From positions 124,001 to 188,000 of the forward strand of contig JBEWZL010000163.1 of NCBI GenBank assembly GCA_045837725.1: a DNA stretch of 64,000 bases, in the 5' to 3' direction. The translations under genes were made by a program, and so were the position numbers. This DNA comes from Vermamoeba vermiformis (lineage: Eukaryota). Positions 904-45,450 of the stretch are shown here, piece by piece; the first letter of the stretch is position 1; each line of letters begins with the position of its first letter. Under the pieces are notes generated by a model. That model saw only the letters and a list, made by a program, of their open reading frames with translations, searched no databases and was not told where the DNA came from.

Positions 904-3814
904 ATGGAGCCAGCAACCAAGAAACCAAAGTAACTATAACATTCTAATTATTAATTATTATTAATTATTATAATAATAAGCCAATGCATCTCAGGTTAAA
1001 CACATCCGGTAATGCAGCAACAGAGACTCTGCATCTGAGTACGGCCTTTCTTTTCAATCATATCTCGAACACCACTAATTTATTATTAATTATTATGAAG
1101 CGTGCGAGCATATTCACATCGATACAAGCATTTACGACGAACTGATCAGTTCTCCGAATTCACGTTTCATCATCAACAACAACAAATGGCTGATCATCAA
1201 CATGCAATACATATGGGAGTTCATACCAAGTAATTAAACACTTCATATTTCATTTTATCCTGCTGATCTTTGCCAGCTCGTGTCAAGTTCATCAAACGAA
1301 CTGAAGTTCCCTCCAGCGACGCTTTAACTCGCTTGTTTCAGGTGGTATCCGATGAAGAAAATAATCAAGTGATATTCTTGGGCCTATCTGCGTTCTACGT
1401 GCTGAGTACTGGTATGTAATAAAAGGATCCACATCCAACGACTTAACTTTTTTCGTTACAGACAGTTGGAAATGGACTCAATACGACAATATAATTAAAG
1501 CACCTATCAACGTACCGTATTGTGCTTCGGGTAGCTTCATATTCAGCTATGATAACGACAAATTGTTTCGCGGTACTTTGCCATTCAACGGAGATCTCGA
1601 AAAAATCGAAACCTTAACACGCGTTAATAATAATAATTTGAATATTAATTTTCCGTGGAGTAATAGCGCCGTTTTATATTATGGCCACTATTACTTCATC
1701 AACGCTGTTCATGAGGATAACGTGCACATCCGGTTTAATTTATTCAAACTTTGTATGACCAACAAAGGTAATTATTTAAATTATAAATAATAACATATTA
1801 ATGATATATTATACAGAATTCGTTGATCTCGGGCAAATAGCCGAATGTAGCCATGGCACTTTTGTTTTTGGATGTGTTCGAGAAAACAAACTGTACTTTG
1901 TTAGCAGCAACAACGAGTTGTTGATTATTTCCAAATTTGGTAATTGCGATGACCAAACACTCCAATACTCTGCTAACAATTCTTTTAAAGGTGCAGAAGG
2001 ACTCGACTGCAAAGTGCTGAAATTCCCTCCAACGCCATTTCTTCGGCGTGCAGTGCCGCGCTATATCGGAGATTTTCCGCCACTCCACTTGTATTTTGCA
2101 TTTGACGGCACTAATTTGGTGCTGTTCGACAAGCGTCAAATGACATTTTTGACACTTGACTTGGACACGTATTCGTGGAGCGAGCCAATCATATTCGAGG
2201 TCAGGCCTAACATTAAATTATATACCTATCGATATATATTAAATATACCTACTTAATTAGGATTATCCCCCGCCACTACTCAACCACATTAATGGAAAAT
2301 GGATCCCGTGGAAAAACACCGGTTTATTAATTACCGGAGATCTGTCCGCAGTATTCTTATTCGATTCTAGTATGCGACTATATACTCAGAATTAATTGCT
2401 TATTTAATGCGTCAAAACATAGAAACTTGGACTTGGACGACCAAACACTGTTTTCATCAACCAAATATACAATTGCTGCACGGTACTGTCATTACTCAAA
2501 TACGTACTATTCACTAATATCACTATGTATTATAGGCGCTATTCACGAAGATCGCTTGTACGTGTGCGGCAGGCCGCATGAGTCCTACACCCAAGAAAAA
2601 CCTCCGCTGGAATTTCACTGTCTAGATCTGAGTACGCGTCACAATTGCCTTATTAATATTTAAATAGTGGCATTAATCATTGCGAATAGAAACTTGGATC
2701 TGGACCAAACCACCGAGCCTTGACTACTACGGCTGGAGCGACATTGCCTCGATAGTCGTCGTAGATAATACACTCTATTTAATTGGTGCATACAACTCTT
2801 ATAAAAACAAATTATACGATTGGGCGGCATTGAATTTAGGTATTAAATTACTTGCTATTTTACCATTAATATTTCTAAATTTAGAAACTAAATCTTGGAC
2901 GAAGTCTCTCAGTGCGAGTAATACAAAAAATTTAACGCACCATATTGCTGGATACTGTTCTGCAAATGTACGTTCATGAACGCTGAAATTTTATTTAAAA
3001 AATTAACTAACCGTTTCATCCTTAGCATAGCATTTATATGATACACCGCCTGTACCTCGCGACATTATCACTGCACGACAATAAACTGAGCACCATTGAC
3101 AGTGCATTCGTTGGCGCCCAGCCAGAGACGCACTTGACCCCGTGTCACGAGGGCTTGTTGCTCATTGGTGGCACTCCCGACGGTATCAAACTGTTCAGTC
3201 GACAGGTGTCTACCAAAAAGATACGCTTCCTGGACACGAGTATGTAAAAAAACAAATTTGTTGTTGTAATTCTAATCATTACTACTCATACAGCAACAAA
3301 CAGCTTCAAAAATATTACCTGGAAAGGAGATGAACACGTGATTAATGGCCCATCATTGTCGGTGCAGCTGAACGGTGAAGTGTTTGTCCTCAACAAATAC
3401 AGCAAAACGATGTTTCGGTATTGTAAGTCAAACACGACCACGATCATATAATATATATCGTGACCACTAACAACGTATCGAGTTAAAGACGCTGTTACGG
3501 ACGTGCAAGTCAAGTCGCTGCAGCACTTAGCGACAACAGCGCTGTGTGGCTATTTAGGTGAGTGTTTTTGACACGTGATTTGATGACACTTTTGGTTTGA
3601 CACGTGTCAATTGTTTTCAGACATGGACAACGTGTTCACACTGCTCGACTACTCGGTCAATCTGCGCAACAGAGTGCTGCAACAAGGCTGCATTGTATTT
3701 TTGAAGAACAACACGCTGAAACTGATGCAGCGCATTGACGAGATCAATCAGTTGAGTCCTGAGATCAAAGACATCTTGGCTGCTACATTTACTTATCTGC
3801 CAATTGGGCAATAA
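904..3814 (+). CDS. Multi-exon beta-propeller (Kelch-like) protein with a C-terminal BC-box-like/BACK-like helical region, paralog A
   Basis: ATG at 904 (MEPATKKP). Many GT-AG introns. Exons contain Kelch-like motifs (LYVCG, WIWTK, LYLIG, LLLIGG). C-terminus reads VKSLQHLATTALCGYLDMDNVFTLLDYSVNLRNRVLQQGCIVFLKNN. Confidence 0.6.
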
Positions 3815-4035
3815 ATACGGTGTTGAATGGTCGAGATTTTTCTTGTAAAATCACCTACCAACATATGTTGCCCTTAGTGTTCTCCAGCATATCCCAACTG
3901 GAGATAGGTGATTTAGTGCTAGTCGGCAAACCGGCAAAAGGTCGGCGTTGAAATCGGACGTCGGTTTTTCAGTCTGGGATCGTATCGTTTTTCATAAACG
4001 GGACGCACTGTGCAACAAAAATACATTTTACGCAA

Positions 4036-4077
4036 ATCGAAAGGTATTGTAAAAACCCAGTTGGGTATATTTCATTT
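4036..4077 (+). repeat. Left terminal inverted repeat of the transposon
   Basis: ATCGAAAGGTATTGTAAAAACCCAGTTGGGTATATTTCATTT matches the reverse complement of 10164-10205 at 40 of 42 positions. Confidence 0.92.
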
Positions 4078-4088
4078 ATTTTAGATAA

Positions 4089-7000
4089 TCATTTGCTCAA
4101 TCTCTTCTTTTCATAGTCAGCCCATACTTCATTCTTGCTTTGGTCTGCATCTATGAAGCAATTACGTGGCTCCCAGGACTGTTGTCCTCCATCCCAAAGT
4201 ACCAGCCATTCTAACTTACGTCCAACTTTTCGGTGGTCTATAATACTTTTAACTACCCATTCTGCCTCATCTGCAAACAAAAATGAGTTACAATTAAGTA
4301 TAAACCTACGATTTACCTTCAACCTGTCGTTTACGCTTCTTTAAATTGACCATTGTTGGTTCTTTTTCTGATGAGACCACAAGCTCTGGTACTTCACGTT
4401 TAACTTGGCCAATCTGGAACAAATCTGTCACAACTTTCACTTCTTCTGTTCTCTCCAGACCTTTGTAATATTCAATGCCCTGTAATGTGTTAGTAACTGA
4501 ATACTAAAGTACAATCCTCACCTTTTCAGAAAGAAATTTAGATGTCTTTGTCACTATTGTGGCTATCAACTCCTTGGACACAGGGTTTGGTTGAAGTGCT
4601 ATAGGTTGGGCTGATGGAGAATGACTAAACACAGATTCTTCAACTTCAATCCATTGTTCATCGAGAGATTTTTGTTTGAACAGGAGTGTTGGAGTGCCAT
4701 CAAGTCCTTTCTTTAGCCAAAAAGCATATTTGTCTTTGTGACCACTCATTGATGAGCAGAATGTGAGAAACCACTTTTTCCAGGAAAGAATGGGCCATTG
4801 GAGTTCATGAATATACACATCCTTGGAATAGATTGACTTTGCAAATGTAATAGCATCATTCATAGTTTCAATAACTTTCCATTGGAAGTAAGTATGAAAT
4901 GGTTGAAATAGTCGGTCAATATCTTCATGTGTGTGGCCAGGTTGTAAATAATGAATGAAAACCTCTTCAAACCACTCATTGTGCACTAGTAATGCTGCAA
5001 ATTGAAGCAAATATTGATTTTTGCCTTCAGCTGCACTGTTATCAACTTGTAAATACAGTGTTGTTGGTCTATTTTGTGGTTGAATTGATAGCAAAGATTC
5101 TTTCAAATGATGGAACAGGAGTGAGATGTAAAAGTCTGCATCTGCAATGTAATCAGACTCCTTGAAAAACACTAACTCTTTCTTGTTCAGCCCATGGTTA
5201 ATGAAGCCTACAAAGCTTGCTTGCAAAAGATTAATATTAGCCCATTCTTTTGGCATTGGATGGTGCTGAGGAAGTTGAAAACTGCCACTTTTGTCTGTAA
5301 TGATGCTCATCTTCAAAAAGGGTTGCTTAATGGCAATATCTGTTCTTTGCCGATACATCTGCCTGTCCTTTGTTATATAATCTATGTGTTCATTCATCTG
5401 CTGTTTCAATTGCAACAGCTTATCTTCTGAAGGGCACTGTAGTCGCCGTTGTTTAATCAATAAACAGGTTGAGCACTTGCCAAGTCGAGTCTCCTTTGGT
5501 CTTTTAACATTCTAAAATCTTTAGCAAAATTGAAAGATGCACATAGTAACTTACTGCAAACCATTTGCGCTTGACCTGCTTGAAAGTTTCATAGCTTGGT
5601 GTGTCAACTCCTGGGTGAAGATTGGCAAATTCTCCAGAAAACAGATTGTACCATTCCTTCACACTTGCATTGGTTAGCAATTGCAGTATCAGAACAAGAA
5701 CTTACGTCATGTGTGATGGTAAGTGAATTTCATCTTTAGTTGGCACATAATCACCATATGTATTGCAATAGTTTTGGATCCAAGCAGCTACTGAGTCTCT
5801 CTTTGGGGAGTCATACACCCGAAAGCAATTACCATGCATATGAGCCTTTGTACCATTTAGGTATTGCTGCTTGCATTGAATAACCTTGTCGACAGACACT
5901 CCATAAACTCTGCAAAATGCAAGCTGACAAACTGATACACCTCCCACCAGGAAAACAACAGCTGGGCTATCAATGTTCATGTTTGTTTCAAAAAATTTCA
6001 TAAGCCACTTGGTTTTCTGACTGTCATTGAGCTCAGCCACCATCTTGCGGCTTTCCAGAATCTGGCTGGTACTGAAGAGTTCAGTACATCTAGCCTTACA
6101 ACAGTTTGTAGCTGCAACTGGAAAGGGTTAGTTACATCTTATATTTGCAAGTTCTAAGTACCTTTGTTAATTGAATCAGCCCCAAGTAACTTTTGTTTTT
6201 TTAATGACTTGAGTTTTTCAGATGGAATGATATTCTTTGTTAGGATTTGGAACAGATTCTGTGAGGCAATTGGGGTACCATCTGGCTGCACTTGCAAGGT
6301 AGTAAATAGGTCTTTTGCATTGATGGCTTTTGAAACAGGTACAGAATTCTAACAAGAGTTAATGCTTAGATAAAGAGCTAAACCAGGTTAAATTACCTGT
6401 CGTTTTAAGTACACAATGTGGTCATAATATATCTTAGATTTGCTTGTTTCAAGTGTTTCAGCCACTGGAGTGGCAATTCCTTCATTTTGCATGCCATCAT
6501 AGAAATACAAGACTGACTGTTGAACAAAATAGCAAGTAGTGTGGGCTCCAGTGCACATCATAACAGCTAATAGGTCATACTGACAATTGTTGACAGTTAA
6601 AACTGGCTCGATGGTTATATTTGGGTTGCTAAATTGCCTTTTGAGTCTTCCTAACTCGATAGTCAAAACTTGTGGCAGCTCCAATGTACCTACACAGTTT
6701 AATATCAAATTCGTTTTCTTCTAATTGAACTTACGATGTTCAACAGGTTGTATGCCACAATCATAGCAGTTGATGGGTAGCTGGCAGTTGTAATCTGCTA
6801 AGTGGTTGAGTGCAGCTTGGAGTGAGAGTGTACTGTCAGTCAGTTTTTCTTCAACAAAAACTGCCGCTTGATGAAATAGCTTTGTTGTTGTAGGACATTT
6901 GCAGTGACTAACAACTTTAAGAGTAGAGGCAAATAATGCTGATTCGGCAATTGACAGAGTTTTGAAAGCTGCCGTTAGTATTGCACCAATTGAGACGTAA

Positions 7001-7286
7001 GTCTTGCAAGGCACCCAACCTACAACAGGACCAAGGGCATCTATCAGATCCAATTTTAATTGGTGTAGCCTGTCACTGGATAGTGGTCCATTATTAATCC
7101 AACTGGTCAATAGTTTAAAAAAGTCACTCTCGAACTTGTGTCCAGGCAATCTTTGCAGCACTAGCCGAAGAACAAAGCCAACTGTCTCAATAGTGCATAG
7201 GTCATTCATATCTACCATTGTTAGGTTGTTCTATTAATAGTGCTTATCTTACTGTTAGAGCCCCATTGAAAGCCTTGGAATGTCAT
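4089..7286 (-). CDS. Transposase fusion protein of about 948 aa: USP-like protease domain, Cys-rich/HTH region, DDD RNase-H-fold transposase, chromodomain
   Basis: Hand-spliced exons 7286-7253, 7211-6735, 6689-6397, 6348-6162, 6117-5706, 5663-5555, 5511-4522, 4479-4317, 4270-4089. All 8 introns are GT-AG and 41-48 nt, phases agree, and there are no internal stops. Motifs: YDLLAVMMCTGAHTTCYF..LYFYDGM; CCKARC; VCQLAFCRVYGVS; RLGKCSTC; SIITDKS / LYLQVDNSAAEGKNQY / GHTHEDIDRLF; EWVVKSIIDHRKVGRKLEWLVLWDGGQQSWEP. Confidence 0.85.
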
Positions 7287-7401: not shown

Positions 7402-7696
7402 GTTCGGCAAAGTAGTGCTGTTTTACATCAGCAGCAAGAGGGCTGATGATACCACTGTGAGCCCCTACGATTTTAGCTAGCCATAACAGTGCCATATATA
7501 TATTAGATGCAATGAATAACAGCCAGCATTATATTTAGTTGAGTTCGGCAAAGTCGTGCTGCGCGCGCAGTTGAAGTTAAAGTCACATAACGTCAGTGTT
7601 GGGCAATCATGATTTTTCTTACCAAAATCAATTGCATATATAAACTACATGAGGTATTATAATACCATATATATACTTAATAGAGTTCGGCAAAGT
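7402..7696 (+). repeat. Three copies of the 12-bp motif GTTCGGCAAAGT spaced 141-142 bp apart, in the spacer between the two transposon genes
   Basis: Exact copies start at 7402, 7543 and 7685. Confidence 0.75.
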
Positions 7697-8544: not shown

Positions 8545-10001
8545 ATGAGTGAGGATACTGACAAGGTATTAATTGACAACCCTACTGCTGCATCAGTTGA
8601 CAGTGAAGCCCAGCAGCCAAAGCAAAATCCCCCGCCCAGTCCAAAATCCACTCGGGAATCATTAATAGCTGGTAATTAACTCTCTTAATTATTCTATAAT
8701 TTTCCCAACATTATGATGTCTCTTTATTTATAAGGAAACTAATTTTTAATGGCTAGAAGAAAAAATTGAGTCCCTCGATCCTGATCGGCAAACCAAAATT
8801 CCTATTGGTAATTCCAATAATGAAGGTACATATTAATTTATTATTGTAAGTATTACTCATACATAAATCAATTATAGTAAGCAATGACAGTGTCCAAGAA
8901 GAAAAATCATCCTTCGGCGGGCTGAACTCTGCCGACAACAAAGGTAAGTAATAAGGCATTGTTGGATCAACTCTGACTTGTTGCTGATTTAGAGGTATAT
9001 ACTGAGTTCTACAAGTACCACGGAGAGCCTTGGAATGGCAATTATTATTGTAAAGTGACTCGGCGGGTAGATGACTTTGCTGTCGAAGTTGGAGATACAG
9101 TGGTTGTAAAAAATGTCATTGGCTTGCACACAGTGCTATTCATCATTCGCAATAAGCAATTCAACAAGGTTCTCCTTGCAGATCCTTCCCTTAAATCTGT
9201 AATTGAAGTCAAGTTCAGTGACGTCGAGTCAGTTGAAGGCAAAGCTAGCAACAGTCAAAAGGAGTGTCTGGATGAATTGTTTAAGGCTTATTATGCAGCA
9301 AAGGTATGTCAGAAACAATATATACCTATTTATTTACATTGTCCAGACTAGAAAAGTCTCTCCAAAGCCTATTGTGAAAACAGAGCCAGCAAAAAAGGCT
9401 TCTAGGACCCAGCCAGTACGTGCCTCAAGAACACCGGTAAAGCCTGCTACACCAAGTAAAAAAGGTAGCAAATTCGTTATATCGATAGGTTTTGACAAAG
9501 ACATTTACAGGAGCAAGCAAGGGACTTGTTGCTAAAGATCAGAAGAGACCTACTGCTGTAGTAGAGCCTTCTTTGGTCAAACGACGACAATTGCAAAGTT
9601 TGTCTGCATCAGAGTCAGAAGATGAAGTTATCCCACTTAAGAACAAGACAAAGCCCATTCACAAGCCAATGTTACCAAAGCTCCAACCACCACAAGCTGC
9701 ACCCACTGCTGCCACTAACACAACTGAATTAGTTGGAGCTCCATCTGTCCACTTGAGTCCTCAAACTACAGGACTGCATAGTACAGGATTGACACCCAGC
9801 CCAGTTACCACTTCTGTGTTGAATACTGCAAATAATTCAAGCAACCAATATCTCCAAAGTATACTTGAATTGCAGCAAATGCAGCACAGACACTCTATGG
9901 CACAGCAACAGGCCCAGTTCATGACAATTCTACAACAACAGCAGCAAGCAGAGGCAGACAGCTCATTCCGTACTGCCTTCTTACTCGCAAACAAACTTTG
10001 A
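8545..10001 (+). CDS. Second transposon-borne gene (about 393 aa) with a BAH-like or other beta-barrel region and a basic/Q-rich disordered tail
   Basis: Hand-spliced exons 8545-8671, 8757-8825, 8878-8943, 8993-9303, 9347-9464, 9511-10001, in frame with GT-AG introns (an in-frame ATG at 8533 is an alternative start). Core reads YYCKVTRRVDDFAVEVGDTVVVKNVIGLHTVLFI...VEVKFSDVESVEGKA. Confidence 0.7.
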
Positions 10002-10163
10002 TATTTATTCTGGTGTTAGAAATTTAATAAACTGAAGTTCAATCTTACATCAAGACAAGCAAGCTGCACACTATGCTATTGCAAAGAACACTATGGTTGA
10101 CCTCCTAAGATCTACAATGAAAAAGAAAGATCATCTCTATCCTCAGAAGAACAATAGAAAAGC

Positions 10164-10205: not shown

Positions 10206-10231
10206 GCAAACAAATTTGTCTTATCCCAACA

Positions 10232-13126
10232 ATGGCTGCCATGGAGCCTGCAACAAAGAAACCTAGGTAAAAAATAAAGATATTACTACTTAATTTTGTA
10301 CTAATTATGGTGTTTAGGATTGCTAATACCGCATCTGGGGCACCAGATCCTATCAAGCTTTGTATGATAACAGACGAAATTGATAATTTGTTAAAAATTA
10401 TTTCTAAATTATTATGAAGCGTGCGAGCATATTCACATCGATACAAGCATTTACGACGAGCTGATCAGTTCTCCGAATTCACGTTTCATCATCAACAACA
10501 ACAAATGGCTGATCATCAACATGCAATACATATGGGAGTTCATACCAAGTAATTAAACACTTCATATTTCATTTTATCCTGCTGATCTTTGCCAGCTCGT
10601 GTCAAGTTCATCAAACGAACTGAAGTGCCCTCCAGTGACGCTTCAACTCGCTTGTTTCAGGTTATATCCGACGAAGAGAACAATCAAGTGATATTCCTGG
10701 GTCTATCAGCGGTCTACGTGGTGAATATTAGTAAGTGCGTTCGATCTGCGTCCGCTTTCAATTTCATAACCGGAATATCATACCATTAGACAATTGGCAA
10801 TGGACTCAATACGACAATAAGATCAAAGCACCTATCAACGCACCGAACTATGCAGCAGAATACTTCATATTCAGCTATGATAACGACAAATTGTTTCGCG
10901 GTACTTTGCCCTTCAACGGAGATCTCGAAAAAATTGCAACTTCGCAGCCTAAAGGCGTTAAAATCAACTATCCGTGGGTTAATAATGCTATTCTATATCT
11001 TGGTGACTATTATTTCATCAACACAATACACCACGTTCACCATTATTTGATCAAGTTGTGCATGGCTCAAAATGGTAATTTAACGCACCTTAATTATAAC
11101 GAGGTTTAATTTTATTCGTAGAATTCGTTGTCGTTGGTAAATTGAACGGAAACATTAAAGGCCAGTTCACTTTCGGATTTGAACGATTCAATTGGCTGTA
11201 TTTCATCAGCGATCACAACACTATGCTTACTATCTCCGAATTCGGTAAGCATATGTACAATAAAAGCAATGCGTTAATATAATCCTGAAAAGAAACGGAG
11301 GAAATTACATTGAAAGTCATGGATCTGCCCGCGAATCCGTTCCTGCCCACATCGCTGGCGAATCAATATATCGGATCGTTTCAAGAACCACTCACATATT
11401 ATGCTTTTGATGGCAACAACTTGATCCTATTCAACAAACGGCGGCTGACTTGTGTCAAATTGGATCTTAATTTCAACACGTGGTCCCAGCCAATCATATT
11501 CGAGGTTAGTTGCTGCTATATTATCTCCTATACTCTAATATTAATTATATGTAGGATTATCCTCCGCCACTCCACAACTATTCTGGTGGAAGTTGGATCC
11601 GCTGGAACAATTCTGGTCTCTTTCTTACCGCGCAAAAGAATCTCGATACAGTGTTCTTATTCGACGCTAGTGCGTATTTTATGATTAACGATACCAATAA
11701 TCAATATTGACCTCTCATACAGAAACCTGGACTTGGACAGCAAAACAATGTTTTGTAGAGCCAAGTTATTTTGGCGAAGCGCCTAAATTGAGTTGGATGC
11801 AAGGTAATATTATTATATCGTTAATAATATTAATATTAATCCCATTACTGACGTTTACTTCGTCGAGGTGCCGTTCATGAAAATTATTTGTACGTGTGTG
11901 GCTGTCCTATTAACCTGCACTCAACTGCTGTGTTCAAAATACATCGCCTAGACCTCAGTATGTATTATATTAACAACAATATGATATTCGCTTGCTAAAT
12001 CCTTCGAGATGAGTGGATGTGGTCCAAAGTACGAAATTTTGAAGAGGAAGAATCAGGTGGTATTGTCGACAATACTGCAATGTATAACCTCAGTAGAAGG
12101 AATGATTATTCGCCCATGTTCGTAGCCAATAACAAGCTCTATTTTCTGACGATACAGATCGGGAAACAAACGCATGATTGGATCGCGTTGGATCTCGGTA
12201 AGATTTAGTCTATTATGGATTTTAACGTTAAATTAATATAACCGAACTCACGTCCATAGAAGCTAACAAATGGACGAAGAAAGAACGAGCCACAAAATCA
12301 AATCCAGAAAACATGCACCACAAAGCTGCGGATTCGACGGCAAATGTAAGCATTGCTTGCTCATGTACTTTATATTAACAGCACTTCCTATCATAGAACT
12401 GCGTGTATATACTATTAGACGGAAATCTCGAAACACTCTCGCTCGCGGACCAAAAAATTGAGAAGATGGAGCGTCGTTATGTCTCCGCGAGCAGTGTCAA
12501 AGACGTCGTTGAATGGGGCTCTAGGTTGGTGATTGTGAGCTCACTGGACGGAACTACGCCTCTCAACGACTTGCGGTTCTTTGACACGAGTAAGACCTCT
12601 ATCATTCGATCATAACAACTGACGGTCGTAGCCAGCAACAGCTATTGCGACGTCACGTGGACAGGCGATGATCCGCACTTGTATCGCCACACTAGAGCCG
12701 TTCAGCTCCACGATCAAGTGTTCGCGCTCACCACCTCGAAGACTATCACGCGCATCTGTAAGCTGAGCTCTGTTGTACTTAATATGTTCACTAACAACGT
12801 ATTCAGTCAAGGACGTGCAAGTCAAGTCACTGCAGCACTTAGCGACGACAGCACTGTGTGGCTATTTAGGTGAGTGTTTTTGACACGTGATTTGATTACA
12901 CTTTTGGTTTGACACGTGTCAATTGTTTTCAGACATGGACAACGTGTTCACACTGCTCGACTACTCGGTCAATCTGCGCAACAGAGTGCTGCAACAAGGC
13001 TGCATTGTGTTTTTGAAGAACAACACGCTGAAACTGATGCAGCGCATTGACGAGATCAATCAGTTGAGTCCTGAGATCAAAGACATCTTGGCTGCTACAT
13101 TTACTTATCTGCCCATCAGGCAATAA
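10232..13126 (+). CDS. Multi-exon beta-propeller (Kelch-like) protein with a C-terminal BC-box-like/BACK-like region, paralog B
   Basis: Starts MAAMEPATKKP. Closely similar exon layout to 904-3814. The last exon is near-identical (DMDNVFTLLDYSVNLRNRVLQQGCIVFLKNN). Confidence 0.6.
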
Positions 13127-13206
13127 ACAGAGGGTGCCAAAGTTGACCTCTACAGTGATTCCAATTGTGGTGCATAATAAATCGAATTAAGATACCGAAT
13201 GAAAAA

Positions 13207-21830: not shown

Positions 21831-22262
21831 ATTAGCTTTGTGATGGCGGTCATTTTCGAGAGGCAGTGCACCAAAGCAGGTAATAAGAGATGATTACAAT
21901 CACATTTTTGCTGCAAACAAACATTTGAATAAAGGATCTTTAAATTACAGGTTAGAGTTATGACGATTTTGGAGTTCTTGTTGGCGCAAGAAGTACGTGG
22001 CTGCCAATCGAGTCTTGTGCTCAAAGAAGACTCATCTTGAGTCTCGTTTAAAAGCGCAGATCTGTCCTTAAAACACAGACGCGTTAGAACTACGCCAATG
22101 AATACACTAAGGATAGTATTTATAGTCGATGCTAGACCACCAATTGACGCGATGAATGAGAACGCGGCGTCGTAGGTATTTTGACGCGTGATGATGGTCG
22201 TGATGAGACTGCGCAGCTGCAGCATGAACACGAATGGATAGGTCACGCCATTAGTCGTATTG
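21831..22262 (-). pseudogene. Duplicated 3' fragment (end of last exon plus 3' UTR) of the gene at 26000-27164
   Basis: About 430 bp nearly identical to roughly 25880-26291 (TTNGVTYPFVFMLQLRSLITTIITRQNTYDAAFSFIASIGGLAST). It has no 5' part and carries an indel of about 26 bp near 22030-22055. Confidence 0.8.
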
Positions 22263-22509
22263 ATGGTGTGTGCTCGATCACAAAGGGACAGGACGGCTGT
22301 GACCCAATGGGACAACACCGTCCCTTCAGTTCACGTTTCATAGAATTGCAATGAACTCGACAATGTGAGTTATAAATCTGACAACAGACTTGAACCAGCA
22401 TCAGCTGTTTTCACTTATCGCAGGTACGAGCACAGAGCATTTAAAATTGTGTCACGGTTTTAGTATCCACAACTAACTAATTGAAATAATATAGATTTAT
22501 TGCTCAAAC

Positions 22510-25500
22510 ATGCCTTGCAATATTTGGCAACTTACGATCATACTGGTTGTAATAAGCAAGACATGTTTTGCGGATGTGGCACTCAATATTTCAGCCTTGT
22601 CCTCTCCACGCGCCGGCTTTTCAGCAATCGAAGCAGGATCTAAAGTCTATTTTATTGGTGGATTTGAACATGGAGATCTGCGAGCAACGAAGACAATCGA
22701 AGTGTACGATCTGCTCACTCAGAACATGTCAACACCACTTCAACTCGACACTCCCCGTGCATATGTAACTCCAATAGTCATTGAGCCAAATATTTATTTT
22801 GTTGGTGGCCTTCAATACGACAATCCAACATTAGTTTACGATCCGGTCCCACACGAGTTCACCAATTATGGCACTGGACCGACTGTCCTGAACACAAAAG
22901 AAATATCACTTCATAACTCTCTTCTGACGATCGTTGGTACCAACGGTGTAGACATTCTTGATGTGGAAAATGGTGTTTGGCTTGATCCGTTACCCCTGCG
23001 TGATCTGCTGTCAGCCGTGGCTCAAAGTGCAATATTTGGCAGCGAAGGTCTGGTTATGGTGCTTGGAGGCGTCAATGTCACCACAGGTGTCTATTCGAGC
23101 TCAGTTTGGGTGTACAATATTTCGAGCAGCGAGATGCACGAGTACCCTGACATGTTGGCTGCTCCTTTCACACAAAGTGGTACTAGAAGCTTCGTATCTG
23201 GCGGCGTTATCGCAATACAATGCACAGAATACAATCAAGGTGTTGTGCTGGTCTATCACGTGGCACGTCGTTTGTGGCAGATAGTTTCATTGGAGAACCC
23301 GAGCGCGGTCATATCACTGCCCGACGTGACATTTATCTTCAACGACACGGCAACACTCGTCACTGTGTATTGGAATGGAACGCGTTCAACGACTAGATCT
23401 ATCGGCATGACCTTTGCACACGCCTTCATCGTCAACAATATCGCAGTGTACCTTGCAAAGCCGGTAGGTGTTGCTTCAATGGCCTTCACCATCTATGACC
23501 AGACTCGCGATGTTTGGGTAGCAACCACTCCGTTCTCGACAACACAAGTCGTTAGAAGTGTCACCCTGGCCACTTGGCACGTGATTCAAACACCTTCAAA
23601 CGTGTTGTTCGGCTACAACCCGTCGTTGAAACGTCTTCTGGCCGTAGTTGACGCTGAAATTTCGTTTGGCCCCATATTGAGCATTATCCCAGCGGAAGAT
23701 CCGGATCAAATGTACATCTTCGAGGATGGAAAGGTCACCAAAACTCAGTTCTTTAGTAACGGAACTACCAATAGTTTGATCAAGCAGCAGCCGTGCGCAA
23801 TTGTGCCACAAGCTCGTGTTGGCTCGGAATTCTTCAATGTGCAGGGCCAAGTGATGAACTTGAACAGCTGGACACAAGTCACCAATCACACGGTACCGCA
23901 GTTGGGCCAAGTCCTGTACGACAGTAACGACCAACGTTTTGTGCTCACCAATGTACCAGTGCTAGACCTCGCCAAAGTAGATTACAATCGTGTTGACATT
24001 TACAACTACGTCACTAAGCAGTGGGCCAATTCAACTGACATGCCTGAAGAACTGACAACGAGCACGACTGTGCGATGGTTCTATTCAGCGGCAGCATTGG
24101 ACAACAAGCTCGTGGTGTGGATGAACACAGTGATGGCAGTCTACGATCCAACAACGAGCCATTGGACCACGTACACGAACTACACTCAAAGCACGGGCAA
24201 CAATGCAATATCAGACATTCACATTCCTGTCCCAACAGCGCAAGGATTAGCCTTTTTGCGAACTGACAACAACACGTTGGATGTCTTTTCACCGAGCACA
24301 TTCCCTGCTTGGACCTCGACATCACCCGCACCTGAAGTCGAGCAAAGCAGCAAATACGTGTTTCAACAGTGCATCGTGCGCAACAACAGTCAGTTGTTTA
24401 TCACTAGTATCAGCATATCATCAGCTGACGTATTATACAATACGCTGTACATCTACGACGTATTGACTGGCAAGTGGAAATATGATCAGTTGCCCAATGG
24501 ACTTACCGCGACGGCAGTTCCAATCATCGTCTTTGCTGGTGACTTTTTGTTGTCGATGACCAATGGAATATTGAGCTACTTGAACTTGATCAGCAGAGAT
24601 GGACAAGATCAGATATTGCCTTTCAAATTCAGCCCCGCAATAGCACTGGAGACGAGTGCCAATGTGACGTTCATCGCTGGTGGTAGAAATCAATACGGCT
24701 CGTATTCTAATCGAATCATGATCATACCGCACAATACCATCACTATCAACCCATCTAATAGCAACATACCTACTGTACAGCCATCCGCACAAGTCGACTC
24801 GAGCCTCAGTGAAGGCGAGTTGATTGCCGCCATCCTTGTGCCGATTGGAGCAGTACTGATTGGCACAGTACTTCTCGTGTTCTTTTTGGTTCGACGAAAC
24901 AAACGAAGAAGAAGACAAGGTTCAAGCAACACAGTTGGTCTTGCAGGAAAGTACGGACAATGGTTCATTCCATTCGAGAGCGTCAAGTTCGGTGATCAAC
25001 TCGGTCAAGGAGCAAGTGGTCAAGTGTTCAAAGGCACTTGGAAAGGGACAACGGTGGCACTCAAAGTGAGCATGACACAAGCACACTCGTCAGTGATCAG
25101 TGAGCTCGAACTGATGATGCAACTCAGACCTCATCCCAATGTGATTCAGTTGTTCGGATTCAGTGTGCACCCTGAGACTGACAGCATCATCTTGGTCATC
25201 GAGTACTGCAATGGTGGATCACTCGATGACACGCTGTTTACCGACAAGCAGCCCATCTCATTGCAACAGAAGATCTCGTGGCTTGTTGGCATGGCAAAAG
25301 GTGTGGAGCACTTGCATGCAAACAATATTGTTCATCGCGACATTGCAGCACGAAACGTGTTGCTTCATCAAAACGAGCCCAAGATCACAGACTTTGGCAT
25401 GTCACGACTGATCGATGAAGACAAACAACGAGGCACAACAAAGTCAGAACTCGGACCCATTCGATGGATGGCACCTGAGTCACTCAAGAACAAAGAGTAC

Positions 25501-25801
25501 TCCAACAAGTCCGGTACGTTACTAGAGTGTCACATCCTTCAATGCTAACAGTGCCTCTGCAGACGTATGGTCGTTTGGCATCTTAATGTACGAAGTGATC
25601 GCTCGAGTTGAACCACATGCAGAAGCAGATCCAATCGAGATTGGTCGACTGATTCGCGACAACGGATTGACACCAAGTGTTCCATCTTCATGTCCTTCAG
25701 AGCTCGCACAACTGATGAAACTATGTTGGGACATGACACCTGACAAACGAGTGTCGATCGAACAGATTGTACTAAGATTAGAAGCAATGCAACGCACGTA
25801 A
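22510..25801 (+). CDS. Single-pass receptor tyrosine-kinase-like protein with a Kelch-like extracellular region
   Basis: Signal peptide, Kelch-like motifs (KVYFIGG, IYFVGG, FIAGG) and a TM helix (LIAAILVPIGAVLIGTVLLVFFLV-RRNKRRRR). Kinase motifs GQGASGQV, VALK, HRDIAARN, DFGMSR, GPIRWMAPE. One intron at about 25513-25562. Confidence 0.9.
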
Positions 25802-25999
25802 AATTCATTCAAAATCAAAGCTCTGAACAACGTAATACCTCCTGTTACTGTCCAGTAGTCGAAGCTGTTGCTGATATCAATTAGCTCTGTGATGACGGTC
25901 ATTTTCGAGAGGCAGGCAAAGTGCACCTAATGCAGGTAATTATCGGAGATGTGACAATTACATTTTTTTCAAACAAACATTTGAATAAAGGTATTTATA

Positions 26000-27164
26000 T
26001 TACAGGTTAGAGTTATGTCGATTTTGGAGTTCTTGTTGGTGCAAAAAGTACGTGGCCGCCAATCGAGTCTTGTGCTCAAAGAAGGCAGATCTGTCCTTGA
26101 AACACAGACGCGTTAGAACGACGCCAATGAATACACTAAGGATAGTATTAATAGTCGATGCTAGACCACCAATTGACGCGATGAATGAGAACGCGGCGTC
26201 GTAGGTATTTTGACGCGTGATGATGGTCGTGATGAGACTGCGCAGCTGCAGCATGAACACGAATGGATAGGTCACGCCATTGGTCGTATTGGCAGCGAGA
26301 CCTTGTGACACGGGACCAAGGTTGAGCAGTGTCGTAGGATAGCGCAACATATCGTCGCTTCGTTCTTGTGTGTAGCCCATGGAATAGAAGTAGCCTGATC
26401 GGACAACATCCATCGTGAAATTGTTCAGTGAATTGAAATCGAGAGCGGCGTGTAACATGGAGTGGTGCAGCAATTTGATCATGAATAGACGACTTTCGCT
26501 AATTGGCGGTGGTTTCACAAATTGGATCGTGAGTGTTATTAGTGGCAGCATTGTGCTCTCGACTCTCCAATTATCAAATTTTCCACCGATAGACACGCAA
26601 GCGTTGTTTAAGAACTGAATTAAGTCACCGCATGTCGATGTTTTAGCTTCTAAAGAGAAACTGCAGCTTAAAATTACTCCTGGTGGATTTACTTCCAATA
26701 CTTGTACGCTGATATAAGAAACTGATGTAGTTTGTACGTTGTCTACTGCACATATTACAAATGTTGGCGTTTGTAGTGGTTCTGGATAGAAAAGATCAGA
26801 TTCGGTTTGTTAACGTGTCAAAATTATCCTACCATTTTTGACTGCTGACGATACCGTAGGGTATGAAGTTATAGTGTTAATTAAGGTTCCAATGGTAATT
26901 GCAATCACAGAAATAACTAGTATCACCGTCAAAACTTTTTCGAACTTCTCTTTTCTTCGTCCAGTGTCATCTACAGCCTCGGGCAATGTAAATCTTTCAA
27001 TAACTGAAATCAAAATAAAATTATTAATCCAAATGCTGGCTAATGCGATCGAAGTGACACGGATCTAGTTGATCAAATCTCTTCTGAATACCTCGTGTAA
27101 TAAAGGACCTTTTCTTCGGTTTATTTTCATCTAATAAGCTGTATTTATCAACTTCCATTTCCAT
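26000..27164 (-). CDS. Two-TM membrane protein with a large extracellular or luminal loop
   Basis: TM1 VLTVILVISVIAITIGTLI, a loop of about 200 aa, then TM2 preceded by Y..AFSFIASIGGLASTI. Three exons joined by GT-AG introns. Confidence 0.6.
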
Positions 27165-37321: not shown

Positions 37322-38883
37322 TTACTCCAAGCCGAAGCCTTGAGTCTCGGTGATGGCGTAGAAGAGATTCTTTTTGAGCTCGTCAATCGAGTAGTACTCC
37401 GGCAATTCTAAGCGGTTGAAACTGCGTGAGGCGATTAGTACTTGTAGCCTCATAGTCATATAGAAGACCTACCAAGAGTGAGCAGTGGGCATGCCAGTCT
37501 TGTGAGTGCGCATGATGGTGAATTTTTGAGGTCCGTTGGAGCCGTACAAGTGCGCGAATCCACCGACAGGGACTTTGAATGTGCCCGTGACAAAGTGCAG
37601 CAAGTGTTTGAGCTCGTCTTGACTCATGCCCTCGACTATCTTCCAGAACCATTGAATGACTGGCGTGTGCTCGTTGTAGTCGCCTTGGTACTCGACATTG
37701 GCACGCAGATCTTGAATGTCTATCTGCTCGACACCGCCGATAACAATAGGCAAGTCCTGAATATGATCGATTAATACTAGCCCCTGGTCTGCAGATTAAT
37801 TGACTTACCTCAGGCTCGAAGAGAGATGTCAACAGATTGAGCGGCACAAACTCGTAGATGCCGCTCTTGATGGCATTGATCTGCTTGTCTCCGCGGTGCA
37901 AATAATACTGCACGCACAGCTCCAAGTACTCTTTCTTGTTCTCTTTCGTCACGGCAATGTTGCGGCCTTTCTCTTTCAAATCGACTTCGCGCTCAGTGCC
38001 ATCGGGCAACTCCTCCACGACTGAGAACGTGAGACACAAGTCATCAATGCCCGTGTCGTTGTCTTGAATGTACTTCAAGCTCTTGTACAGCTGTTCGTCG
38101 ATCAGCTGCAAGTCATCAATGGTCAGATCGCGTTCCAGCACTGACTTGTAGAACGGCAGGTTGAAGTAGCTGTGGAACAGTTTGCCGTGATAAATCGCGA
38201 GGCCAATGATCGTGCCCACAAAATAAAATCGTTCAATGTGTTGCGCACTGTCCGCGTGATGATTGATGTGGTACTCGTTGCCCTTGCGCACAAACAATTC
38301 GAAGCGTTCAGACATCATTTCTTCTGACAGCGACAAGAACCAGTCGCGGCTCATGCCTCCGTAGTCGAGGCCTGTCTCGCCTGCAGTGCACGTGATGAGT
38401 ACTTGCCTAATAAGGAAATATCTAAGCGCTTACCATCGTATTTGATGTGCAGGGTACGTGTGAGTGTGAGCGGATCCAAATTGGCCAAGTAGGCAGCTGA
38501 GTCTTCAAAGATGTGTTCTCGGCGCACCACAATCTCCAAGATACCCTCGTCGTGCTGTTGTTGGTGCAACTTGCCGCGCAAATGTTGAATCTTGGAGTGA
38601 ATGTCCCACTTGTACTTGGGCGGACGACTCTTCACCAGCTGCGTGCTGGATCTCCTTCTTCTGCCGCATTACAGTTAGTTCTCAAGAGTGCCATATGGCT
38701 GCACACGTACCGTGGATCGAAGAAGGTCGTGGTCTTGTTGACGTGATCGATGAAGTAGGTCTGGCCCTTGGGAGTGACGGACTGTTCCCAGCCCACTGGC
38801 AGCGGGGCCTCAGAGAGACTCATGTCCACTGCCAGTCGCAGTGCATCGCGTTGTTGCACGCGTCGTGATTGTCTTGCGCCCAT
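37322..38883 (-). CDS. WW-HECT E3 ubiquitin ligase (compact NEDD4/Rsp5-like)
   Basis: WW domain [36 protein letters not shown] motifs [42 protein letters not shown]. The N-terminus is MGARQS. Confidence 0.92.
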
Positions 38884-42872: not shown

Positions 42873-45450
42873 TTAGAGTGTTCGTGTTAAGCGCCAGACT
42901 TCACGGCCAAAACCTGAGCAAAGTTGATAGATGTAATCGCGTGACTTCTTGCTGATGGCTGAATAAATAAGGTTAGCGTCTGTAACCAATTAAAAATGCA
43001 TTTCTCGCTTACGATTAGTGGCACCAGAGCGGTTGTAGTGCTCGACAATTGTGTCGAATTCTTTGCGCGTGTAAGGAGGAATGTTGACCCAAGTAGTCTC
43101 GTGCTCCTTAGTGTCTTCCATAAATTGTTCAATCTTTTGTTCTTCGGTCAAGGCACCAATAAAAGCTCCGTTAATGAGTCCGTGATCAACGTGACCGTCG
43201 AAGAACAAGCGAGCAAGTGTGAAGTTACGACCAGCCAACATGTCCTTGCTGTAGCGGCGAGACTCGGGGTCAGCAAAGTTGACGCTGTGATTGTAAAGGG
43301 CGTTGTAGTCGTCGACGGCGAGGAGGACAGGGAACTCTTCCACAAGTGACAACTCGCGACGGAAGTGAACGACAGCATCGGCAGCATAGGCTTCGAGAGC
43401 TGAGCCGAATTCGACCAAGTCAAACAAAGTCTGGCCTTCAAATCTGCCCAATTGGAACTTGGTGCGCAGAGGGATTTGTCGGAGCTTATCTTGGTGAGCA
43501 TCAATCATGTTGTTGAGGAACTTCATGGCAATCTGAGGTTGATCCCAGCAGTCAGGAATCAACTTAGACTTCTCGAGGTAGTCACCAGTGTTGATTAAAT
43601 TGTGACCACTGTTAATATATACAACGAGCCAATCGTTCTTTCGGGCCCAGTAAACAATTTGACTTAAAGCACCGCTCTTGCCACAGCCCTTGAAGCCGAC
43701 TAAACGACAGTTAGTCTACGAACGATAAGAAGAGCAGCAAGTACGTACACAAGATGTGTGAAGTGTTGGAATCAGACTTGATGAACTTGTTGGCTTGAGC
43801 CTTTGTCAAGTCAGAGATCACGCGCATAGCAGGCTCACGAATCAACAAGCCTCGTTGTTTAGTAGAGGCAAATTCTTCTTTAACATATCTACCACCCATA
43901 CCCTCTGTAGTTCGATTAGTATGATTAAATGACATTCGTAATCAGGTGTTAACGCACCAGGGAAGTACTTCTTGAAGTCTTTTTCATCGAGTACCACGAC
44001 CTTGCCAGTGGATTGAGGAGTGAAAGACTGCAAGCAATGTCAGCATCAAGTTAATAACATGTCACATGCACGTACCTCGTTCTCGGAGATGTAGACGGGT
44101 TGAGCAGCACGAGAGGCTTGTTCAGAGGCAGCCAAACGTTGGACGTTCAAGTTTTGTTGAATAACGTCCCACATGGACTTGCGGATTTGAACAGACTCCT
44201 TATCTGTCAAGGTGCATATTAGAGGCTGTTGTTCAGACTTCACTTGCACTACTCACCATTGACATCAACACCAGTCATGAACGAATCGAAATCGATGGTC
44301 TCCCAGTTCAATTTGCTGGCAAACAGTTAGCATTGAACACCGTAAAATACTTGTAGCGTTACATACTCGAGGTTCAACGCCTTGCGAATAGTGGCGAGGG
44401 TGTTCAACATAACTTCAACATCAAGATTCTTCAACACGGTGGGTACGATCATTTCGGGATAGGTCTTGTTGGACTCAGCAATGGTGTGTTTCATTGCCTC
44501 GAGGAATTGTCGCTCGTCTTCAGCTGCTTGTTGTTCCAAATTCACAGCGTCGAGCAAAACACTCTTGTACAACGGGTTCTGTTCCTCGTCTGCTCGCTTT
44601 TTGAATCGTTCCAAACGAGCAGTGGCGTCATTCAACAAGTCTTGTGCCATGTTGTGAATGCTTTCGTTAAAGTCACGAACACCGTAGGGTCGTGGATCAG
44701 TGTGTTCAAACATAATCTTCAACAGCGGGTTGTCGCTGTCGAAGGCTGCAGGATACAGCTCGCGCAACTTCTTGACGTGCATGACACGTTCAGGTCCGCT
44801 GAGCTCTGTGACTTGACGTTCAGCCACCAACAACTCGTTGGGGTATTTCTCGCGAATACGAGCGAGGGTCTTGTCGTATTCAGCTTCAATGCGTGCTCTG
44901 ACATCGCTGGCCTCTGCAACGACAATAACATTAGTCTCTGGTGCGTAGTAGTTGTGATAACAGGACTGTACCCTTTGTGTAACCGAGTCTGTAATCAACC
45001 TCCTTTGCTTCTTCTTCCTTATGTTGTACTTGAACAATCTCTTCTTCAACCTTTTTAGCTACTTCTTTCTTCTTCTTTGCCAACGTCAATGAGGACGAGT
45101 GGTATTGAAATCTGTCCAATCTGGCAGACTGAAAATAATAATTAACAAACGATGCAATAATTTGTTTAAAATAAATCAATGATAATTTTAATGCGAGAAA
45201 TATTGGCGAAATAAAATGGCTAGGATAATAAATTATTAATCTGCGATCTGTTTATAAATTATCAAAACGGCTTCTGACTTGGTTGATTACTTACGATATT
45301 GTCATTCTTAATTGAGTTGATTATTGTGGTATTTTTATAATTGTTTTGGCTGAGTTTCAGTTGTTTGTGGAGTAAGATCGGTAATCCAGATCGGATGGCG
45401 CTAGAACTAGCCACTTTTCGAACGGAACGAACCAACGCCCTTTGCAACAT
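42873..45450 (-). CDS. DAP3: Mitochondrial small ribosomal subunit protein mS29 (DAP3) with a long N-terminal extension
   Basis: Mitochondrial-type presequence MLQRALVRSVRKVASSS, GLLIRE, P-loop GFKGCGKS..LSQIVYWARKNDWLVVYI, WDQP, FPVLLAVDDYNALY. Strong codon bias. Confidence 0.82.

Follow-up and report, generated by a model that had tools for sequence, protein, structure and literature searches.

What kind of domain lies at the N-terminus of a transposase-like protein of Vermamoeba vermiformis, and could it act on ubiquitin? The question is raised by positions 6397..7286 (minus strand) of a 64,000-nucleotide stretch of contig JBEWZL010000163.1 (NCBI GenBank assembly GCA_045837725.1, positions 124,001 to 188,000 of the forward strand), which we call the window. 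This part of the window lies within an element of 6,170 bp bounded by inverted repeats. A preliminary description, made from the sequence alone, had read it as a putative deubiquitinase of the ubiquitin-specific protease (USP) type, with a papain fold, at the N-terminus of the element's transposase. Here we describe the gene to which the stretch belongs, and weigh the features that connect its product to USPs. In our judgement, the balance of sequence features tips towards a USP-like fold for this N-terminal module, albeit a compact and highly divergent one. The fuller reading, in which this USP-like domain is probably an active isopeptidase for ubiquitin or ubiquitin-like (UBL) proteins that travels with the transposase, is the one we prefer, and we hold it only tentatively.

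The gene that carries the module

Scripted splicing of the window sequence shows that 6397..7286 encodes the first 268 residues (exons 1-3) of an intact gene of nine exons and 948 amino acids. The frame of 948 codons runs without an internal stop to the stop codon at 4091-4089, across eight introns of 41-48 nt that all have GT..AG borders and CTAAC-like branch sites and all preserve the frame. Both limits of the stretch are landmarks of the gene: position 7286 is the A of the ATG, and position 6397 is the last base of exon 3, which is directly followed by intron 3 (48 nt). The window as a whole is eukaryotic in character, with a GC content of about 0.36-0.52 and many spliced genes. The parts of the gene are as follows:

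7253..7286, minus strand: exon 1, residues 1-11 (MTFQGFQWGSN) and the first base of codon 12; ATG at 7286-7284; placed by splice signals alone
7212..7252, minus strand: intron 1, 41 nt, GTAAG...CCTAAC...TAG, with the size class and branch-site type of the other seven introns
6735..7211, minus strand: exon 2, residues 12-170; Cys17, a predicted helical region of about 100 residues, the CxC and the CxxC pair
6690..6734, minus strand: intron 2, 45 nt, in frame with a TAG stop
6397..6689, minus strand: exon 3, residues 171-268; LPQVLTIEL, YDLLAVMMCTGAH, FYDGM and a C-terminal YYDHIVYLKRQ; candidate USP 'palm'
6162..6348, minus strand: exon 4, residues 269-330; a Met-free linker with the basic stretch KLKSLKKQK at 6216-6190
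5706..6117, minus strand: exon 5, residues 331-467; start of the Cys-rich N-terminal region of the transposase-like part, with CCKARC at 6103-6086
5555..5663, minus strand: exon 6, residues 468-504, from the gene model
4522..5511, minus strand: exon 7, residues 505-834; DUF7869 domain with a candidate acidic triad
4317..4479, minus strand: exon 8, residues 835-888; a linker with KKRKR at 4341-4327
4089..4270, minus strand: exon 9, residues 889-948 and the stop codon; HP1-like chromodomain

The protein is thus modular: an N-terminal Cys/His-rich module (residues 1-268) is followed by a basic linker, a Cys-rich region with the DUF7869 core, then another basic linker and, at the C-terminus, an HP1-like chromodomain. 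The motif strings quoted in the preliminary description, along with their coordinates, all appear in the minus-strand translation once the two short introns are removed. Moreover, because the frame is open through nine exons and exons 2 and 3 have matches among independent database proteins (53-80% identical, and in one case 99%), the stretch is genuine coding sequence.

These database proteins are few and short. For the searches we used P0001, a read-through of exon 2, intron 2 and exon 3 with an X at the intron stop. An exhaustive phmmer search of P0001 against 1.84 billion representative proteins returned five matches, all of them exon-sized fragments (47-163 amino acids, 53-80% identity). 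A word-based search found no longer protein with the module among 2669 candidates, and among shorter proteins only P0008 (99% identity) and the fragments P0004-P0006. The relatives divide by exon: P0003 (58%), P0005 and P0006 match exon 2, while P0004 (79%), P0007 (about 51-53%) and P0008 match exon 3. Pattern scans with exon 3 and exon 2 in a collection of bacterial and archaeal genomes gave 96 and 59 pattern matches, none of which was confirmed. By these searches, the module is a near-orphan. The open reading frames (ORFs) of P0003 and P0005 end just after ...VEHRK, where intron 2 begins in the window, and those of P0004 and P0008 end with ...KRQVI, where intron 3 begins. These ends therefore fit conserved intron positions.

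Could exons 1-3 nonetheless be foreign to the transposase-like gene, whether as a small gene of their own, a piece captured from the host or an artefact introduced by the splice model? Exon 1 and all splice junctions are predicted from sequence, the relatives do not exceed 163 amino acids and none spans the junction with the transposase, and no longer protein joins the two among the 2669 candidates. On the other hand, the frame is preserved through eight introns of like size and signals, the ORFs of the relatives end exactly at the starts of introns 2 and 3, and the module lies inside the element's inverted repeats. In addition, there is no Met in exon 4, nor in exon 5 ahead of the conserved CCKARC block, and the DUF7869 part therefore depends on upstream exons for a start codon. 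Taken with these points, a separate origin of exons 1-3 is very improbable. In the predicted gene model, the module is in one reading frame with the transposase-like protein and at its N-terminus, which bears out the placement given in the preliminary description.

Likeness of the module to ubiquitin-specific proteases

USPs share a characteristic order of sequence boxes: a Cys box, a zinc CxxC pair, LPxvLxixLxR, YxLxAVxx.xG..H, aromatic-x-[FY]-D and a final YxxY.[KR]. Six or seven motifs of the module are collinear with this order and plausibly spaced. The first, GFQWGSNNMNDLCTIET, straddles intron 1 (7252-7212), which makes the 34-nt exon 1 essential to the 'Cys box'. Within DLCTIET (residues 15-21, window 7203-7183), Cys17 (codon 7197-7195) stands before a predicted helix and is followed by about 100 predicted helical residues. 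Two Cys pairs come next, some 40 residues apart: Cys115 and Cys117 in HCKC (residues 114-117, 6906-6895) and Cys160 and Cys163 in NCYDC (residues 159-163, 6771-6757). LPQVLTIEL (residues 175-183, 6678-6652), right after intron 2, opens an LPxVLxIxLxR-like motif. YDLLAVMMCTGAHTTCYF (residues 208-225, 6579-6526) has the form YxLxAV..G..H and contains His220 (codon 6543-6541), FYDGM (residues 233-237, 6504-6490) has the form aromatic-x-[FY]-D and contains Asp235 (codon 6498-6496), and a Y..Y.KR motif closes the module. As in peptidase C19 (PF00443; UCH_1, PF13423), a Cys is followed by candidate zinc Cys pairs, a His and an Asp, with predicted helices making up most of the first half and strands most of the last third. 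In USPs the catalytic His is followed at about 15-20 residues, on the next strand, by an Asp or Asn; Asp235 lies 15 residues after His220, a spacing generic to papain-like folds. In both low-confidence AlphaFold2 models (described below), Cys17 precedes a helix, and two adjacent strands come just after the His (P0001 residues 225-230 and 233-238), with Asp235 directly after the second. In the sequence, Asn11, Asn12 and Asn14 stand upstream of Cys17.

A protein-language-model search adds a lead from exon 3 (97 amino acids). Its top match scored 0.95, with 193 of 256 shared features, and was a cluster in which 11% of members carry Pfam UCH (PF00443). A cluster with UCH on 100% of its members stood at rank 23 with a score of 0.87. 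Overall, 7 of the 30 matches belong to the UCH family set, and the best ten family-bearing matches agree 10/10 on one family or clan. By calibration, shuffled proteins reach 0.95 about once in 100, and 193 shared features fall in the range of same-family pairs. By the same calibration, a family found on under half of a cluster's members is a lead only, and 10/10 agreement is also seen in one third of shuffled proteins.

Several results weigh against a USP-like fold or at least fail to support it. In the language-model search itself, 20 of the 30 matches of exon 3 are clusters without a family, the top cluster owes its UCH label to just 11% of its members, and exon 2, which bears Cys17, has no usable match. 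Pfam-A hmmscan of exon 2, exon 3, P0001, P0003 and P0004 returned no family at E<=1 or at E<=10, UCH and UCH_1 included, with HMMER filters that drop most matches above about 0.1. NCBIfam at E<=10 gave one noise match, of 12-15 bits where the cut-off is 690, to a model for branched-chain amino acid transporters. Searches of the PDB with single exons and with profiles A1, A2 and A3 yielded no USP; the matches were capsid proteins, an uncharacterised archaeal protein and an iron hydrogenase, at E of about 1. The AlphaFold2 models have a mean predicted local distance difference test (pLDDT) score of 38.1 from the single sequence and 40.1 from a seven-row alignment, too low for the geometry of a triad to be read. 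Foldseek of the second model against the PDB had no match at E<=0.001 (top E=0.11; template-modelling scores of 0.07-0.16 for the top three), an outcome that is uninformative rather than negative given the pLDDT of 40.1.

The signature motifs point the same way. The PROSITE Cys-box pattern begins G-[LIVMFY]-x(1,3)-[AGC]-[NASM]-x-C-[FYW], and a regular-expression scan of six frames with the strict pattern found no match: Cys17 is followed by Thr, not by an aromatic residue, and is displaced relative to the GFQWGS start. The corresponding His-box pattern is Y-x-L-x-[SAG]-[LIVMFT]-x(2)-H-x-G-x(4,5)-G-H-Y. In its strict form it has no match either, and only the first half fits, as Y-D-L-L-A-V (6562-6579); Cys216 stands in place of the first His, the loop of 4-5 residues is absent and AHT replaces GHY. 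In addition, the first zinc-type pair is CxC rather than CxxC, and the module, at 268 amino acids, is shorter than USP cores, which have about 300 residues or more. Because no family profile matches the module and neither signature pattern does, we do not assign it to peptidase C19, and 'USP-like' is used here as a working hypothesis. The USP or papain fold of the preliminary description thus survives as a language-model lead from exon 3 to UCH, but neither Pfam nor the PDB gave it a hidden Markov model (HMM) or profile match, whether to a USP or to another papain-like family.

These negatives give weight to a different explanation, namely that the module is an orphan accessory domain of another fold, such as a helical bundle with a small zinc-binding beta unit, serving in DNA-end recognition, multimerisation or host-factor binding, and that its USP motifs arose by chance. 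DDE transposases usually have a zinc-binding DNA-binding domain at the N-terminus, and every HMM, profile and structure-library test of the module was negative or uninformative. The silence of exon 2 in the language-model search, the failure of the strict patterns and the two calibration limits on the exon 3 lead also fit. The explanation has to reckon, however, with a first match that about 1 in 100 shuffled proteins would reach, with shared features in the same-family range, and with six or seven motifs in USP order and at plausible spacing. Moreover, the part of the protein shared with a longer relative, P0002, already has a Cys-rich candidate DNA-binding region (from CCKARC onward), and a second would be unneeded. 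On this evidence we think an unrelated accessory fold rather unlikely, while taking it seriously.

If the fold is USP-like, is the module also an enzyme? The preliminary description had proposed a possible Cys/His/Asp triad and zinc-ribbon-like Cys pairs. The residues exist and are kept in the few relatives that cover them, although, as described above, they do not sit in strict Cys and His boxes. DLCTIET and the CxC and CxxC pairs are each kept in 3/3 covering relatives, His220 in 3/3 (one being the 99% copy) and YDG, with Asp235, in 4/4 covering sequences. The block around Cys17 is among the best-conserved windows, with 9/10 positions identical to P0003 as against 91/158 overall. Two features of this comparison count against a catalytic reading of it. 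The sample is small, consisting of six fragmentary relatives at 51-99% identity, and since every one of the ten Cys covered in the module is conserved, conservation does not set the proposed ligands apart.

A USP-like fold could also serve without deubiquitinase action, either as a pseudo-enzyme that binds ubiquitin or UBL proteins, or as a cis-acting protease that frees the transposase from its N-terminal part. There are parallels for both: PAN2 has an inactive USP domain, and viral papain-like proteases of USP-like fold process polyproteins as well as removing ubiquitin. In keeping with such a role, the Cys box is non-canonical, the loop that would precede the catalytic His is missing, AHT replaces GHY and the module is compact. 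Against it, none of the candidates Cys17, His220 and Asp235 is missing, and diverged copies keep all three. Self-cleavage at a Gly-Gly in the linker was considered and rejected: the linker has none, and the only two GG dipeptides of the protein are at residue 389, within the transposase-like region (conserved with P0002), and at residue 916 in the chromodomain. We consider a USP-like domain of this kind unlikely. Our working model is an active isopeptidase, given that the three triad candidates all persist in diverged copies.

Transposase-like core, chromodomain and possible role

The DUF7869 domain (Pfam PF25273) is matched by exon 7 with E=3.9e-39 and 134.7 bits against a cut-off of 26, over profile positions 2-190 of 192. 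P0002 (708 amino acids) is the sole longer relative found for the transposase-like part. In a blastp comparison with the spliced protein, residues 311-825 align with residues 24-542 of P0002 (E=4e-50; 26% identity over 536 aligned positions), and similarity begins at residue 311 in exon 4, just upstream of exon 5. The shared part includes the CC..C region, LYLQVDN and GHTHE(D/N)ID. P0002, unlike the protein described here, is without the N-terminal module and appears to be without a chromodomain (no Chromo match was reported). Because only 23 residues precede its aligned region, the module and linker are an addition on the present lineage. From the alignment with P0002 we infer a candidate acidic triad of D577, D661 (LQVDN) and E700 (GHTHEDID). 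The element context and this conserved pattern, common to both proteins, are the reasons for which DUF7869 is here called a transposase, and the core is probably of the DDE type. By sequence, the DUF7869 exon had no match in the PDB, and a literature search found no paper mentioning DUF7869.

Exon 9 resembles a chromodomain of the HP1/CBX kind. It is about 55 residues long, C-terminal, and has the pattern E-[WY]-x-V-x-x-I...W-L-V-x-W...WEP. Its match to Pfam Chromo (PF00385; E=0.0065) reaches 16.8 bits and stays below the gathering cut-off of 25.1. A phmmer search of the PDB gave 30 matches at E<=1, of which 26 are named chromodomain proteins (CBX/HP1, cpSRP43, CDY), with CBX1 as the best (E=4.6e-4). 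Chromodomains are also borne by chromovirus integrases, but here the domain is on a cut-and-paste-type transposase and not on a retroelement integrase.

How might such a protein work? In terms of the USP hand, Cys17 at the start of a predicted helix, with the roughly 100 predicted helical residues after it, would form the 'thumb', the Cys pairs at 115/117 and 160/163 would form a predicted zinc knuckle pair, or 'fingers', and the strand-rich C-terminal third, with His220 and Asp235 on a predicted hairpin, would form the 'palm'. An active isopeptidase would then be carried along with the transposase, and may strip ubiquitin or UBL proteins off that protein, or off chromatin and repair factors at the site where it acts. 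The chromodomain, for its part, may steer the protein to chromatin with methylated histones. Histones or the transposase itself had been named as the targets in the preliminary description; here too we purely infer them. An anti-silencing version of the model would have the transposase dock on methylated heterochromatin and strip ubiquitin or UBL proteins from histones, repair factors or itself. In its boldest form, the module would represent an unrecognised branch of minimal, sequence-orphan USP-like deubiquitinases (DUBs), recruited by a DUF7869 DNA transposon and combined with a chromodomain as a device against silencing or degradation. It would add a further class to the DUBs of eukaryotic mobile elements, with an active site that lacks the canonical loop before the catalytic His. 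That full proposal is speculative, and we regard it as doubtful.

The element, its surroundings and its known counterparts

The element that encloses the gene is present as one copy in the window. GCAA stands immediately outside both ends (4032-4035 and 10206-10209) as a candidate 4-bp target-site duplication. The remaining features of the element are as follows:

4036..4082, no strand assigned: left terminal inverted repeat, 47 nt; contains AATAAA just after the transposase stop codon
10159..10205, no strand assigned: right terminal inverted repeat, 47 nt, 91% complementary to 4036-4082
8993..10003, plus strand: part of a second gene, in divergent orientation inside the element, with at least three exons; its start was not found

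The left inverted repeat has its inner edge 7 nt from the transposase stop codon (4060-4091 region). As AATAAA lies within that repeat, the end of the element may double as a polyadenylation signal. The second gene has introns of about 46-48 nt, a beta-rich N-terminal exon and a C-terminal tail rich in P, T and Q that ends at 10001. It has no Pfam match, and its sole match in the PDB is weak and non-significant (Csm6, E=0.81).

Upstream of the transposase gene, at 116-409 bp from its ATG, there are three exact copies of CTTTGCCGAAC (7402-7412, 7543-7553 and 7685-7695, minus strand), 141-142 bp apart. Given how evenly they are spaced, they may be what is left of a decayed 142-bp repeat, or an array for regulation or binding; in a shuffle control, 8 of 100 shuffles also gave three matches at one mismatch.

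Direct repeats spaced 9.3 kb apart were considered as part of the element and rejected. They are two tandem paralogous host genes (1077-3815 and 10396-13127), 68-97% identical in pieces, with the element in the intergenic space that separates them. Identity between the paralogues is uneven, with 83% over 1077-1703, 68% over 2174-2371 and 97.5% over 3499-3815, and there may have been recent gene conversion at their 3' end.

Further along the window, a direct repeat of 87% identity (21831-22262 and 25880-26291) brackets a single-exon gene for a Kelch-repeat receptor-like protein kinase (22495-25548; PK_Tyr_Ser-Thr, E=8e-48), and each copy of the repeat encodes, on the minus strand, the same segment of a membrane-protein-like ORF. 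At 44327-45058, both strands are open over about 730 bp (243 amino acids on the minus strand and 233 on the plus strand), and the minus-strand ORF is without a Pfam match. Host genes recognised by Pfam in 19151-63873 encode ATP-grasp, an MFS transporter, a HECT ubiquitin ligase (37383-38429), mitochondrial DAP3, a pentapeptide-repeat protein, DENN, an NAD-binding dehydrogenase and START. A scan of the window for a canonical host USP gene, as a comparison partner, found none.

How does the element compare with known systems? Ulp1 and OTU protease domains are described on proteins of Ginger1, Mutator and Helitron elements (PMC2836005), and VTD and OTU deubiquitinases on Helentrons, with DUB activity shown for VTD domains (PMC9741609). 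Like the module as we read it, these are papain-like proteases of ubiquitin or UBL proteins on mobile elements, and the same logic has been proposed, namely protection of the proteins of transposition or modulation of repair and chromatin. They differ in protease family, in the order of catalytic residues (VTD has an Asp-x-His motif) and in the transposition enzyme. In Ginger1 the protease domain is C-terminal, whereas the module here is N-terminal.

The nearest counterpart is a Trichomonas vaginalis protein, XP_001314237.1, cited by Bao, Kapitonov and Jurka in 2010, which combines transposase_11 (PF01609) with Peptidase C19 (PMC2836005). It likewise has a ubiquitin-hydrolase-type domain on one polypeptide with a DDE transposase, and because of it a fusion of the USP type to such a transposase is not unprecedented. 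The preliminary description had called USP-transposase fusions less familiar, which is fair, although this case is a precedent. Compared by description only, the two differ in that the T. vaginalis transposase is IS4/IS5-like and not DUF7869, a standard domain model picks out its C19 domain but not the present module, and no chromodomain is mentioned for it in the available part of PMC2836005. A search of titles and abstracts found none that appears to describe a USP/C19 domain on a DUF7869-type transposase or together with a chromodomain. A search for Kyakuja with Ulp1 found no paper, and the available parts of PMC12730594 and PMC12062965 hold nothing on proteases of this kind. If the fold holds, three things would be new here: DUF7869 as the partner, a chromodomain on the same protein, and a protease-like module that has diverged to an extreme degree.

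Mobile elements have repeatedly acquired proteases of ubiquitin and UBL proteins, with Ulp1, OTU, VTD and at least one C19 case (PMC2836005, PMC9741609), and what they contribute to transposition has yet to be worked out. Should the USP reading of the module fail, the module would still be a near-orphan conserved domain, and the lesson would be that motif-level likeness to USPs is insufficient. Should it hold, this compact and apparently intact element would unite a protease-like module, a putative transposase of the little-studied DUF7869 family and a chromatin reader on one polypeptide. With everything on a single protein, it would be a convenient system in which to study how a transposon benefits from such proteases.

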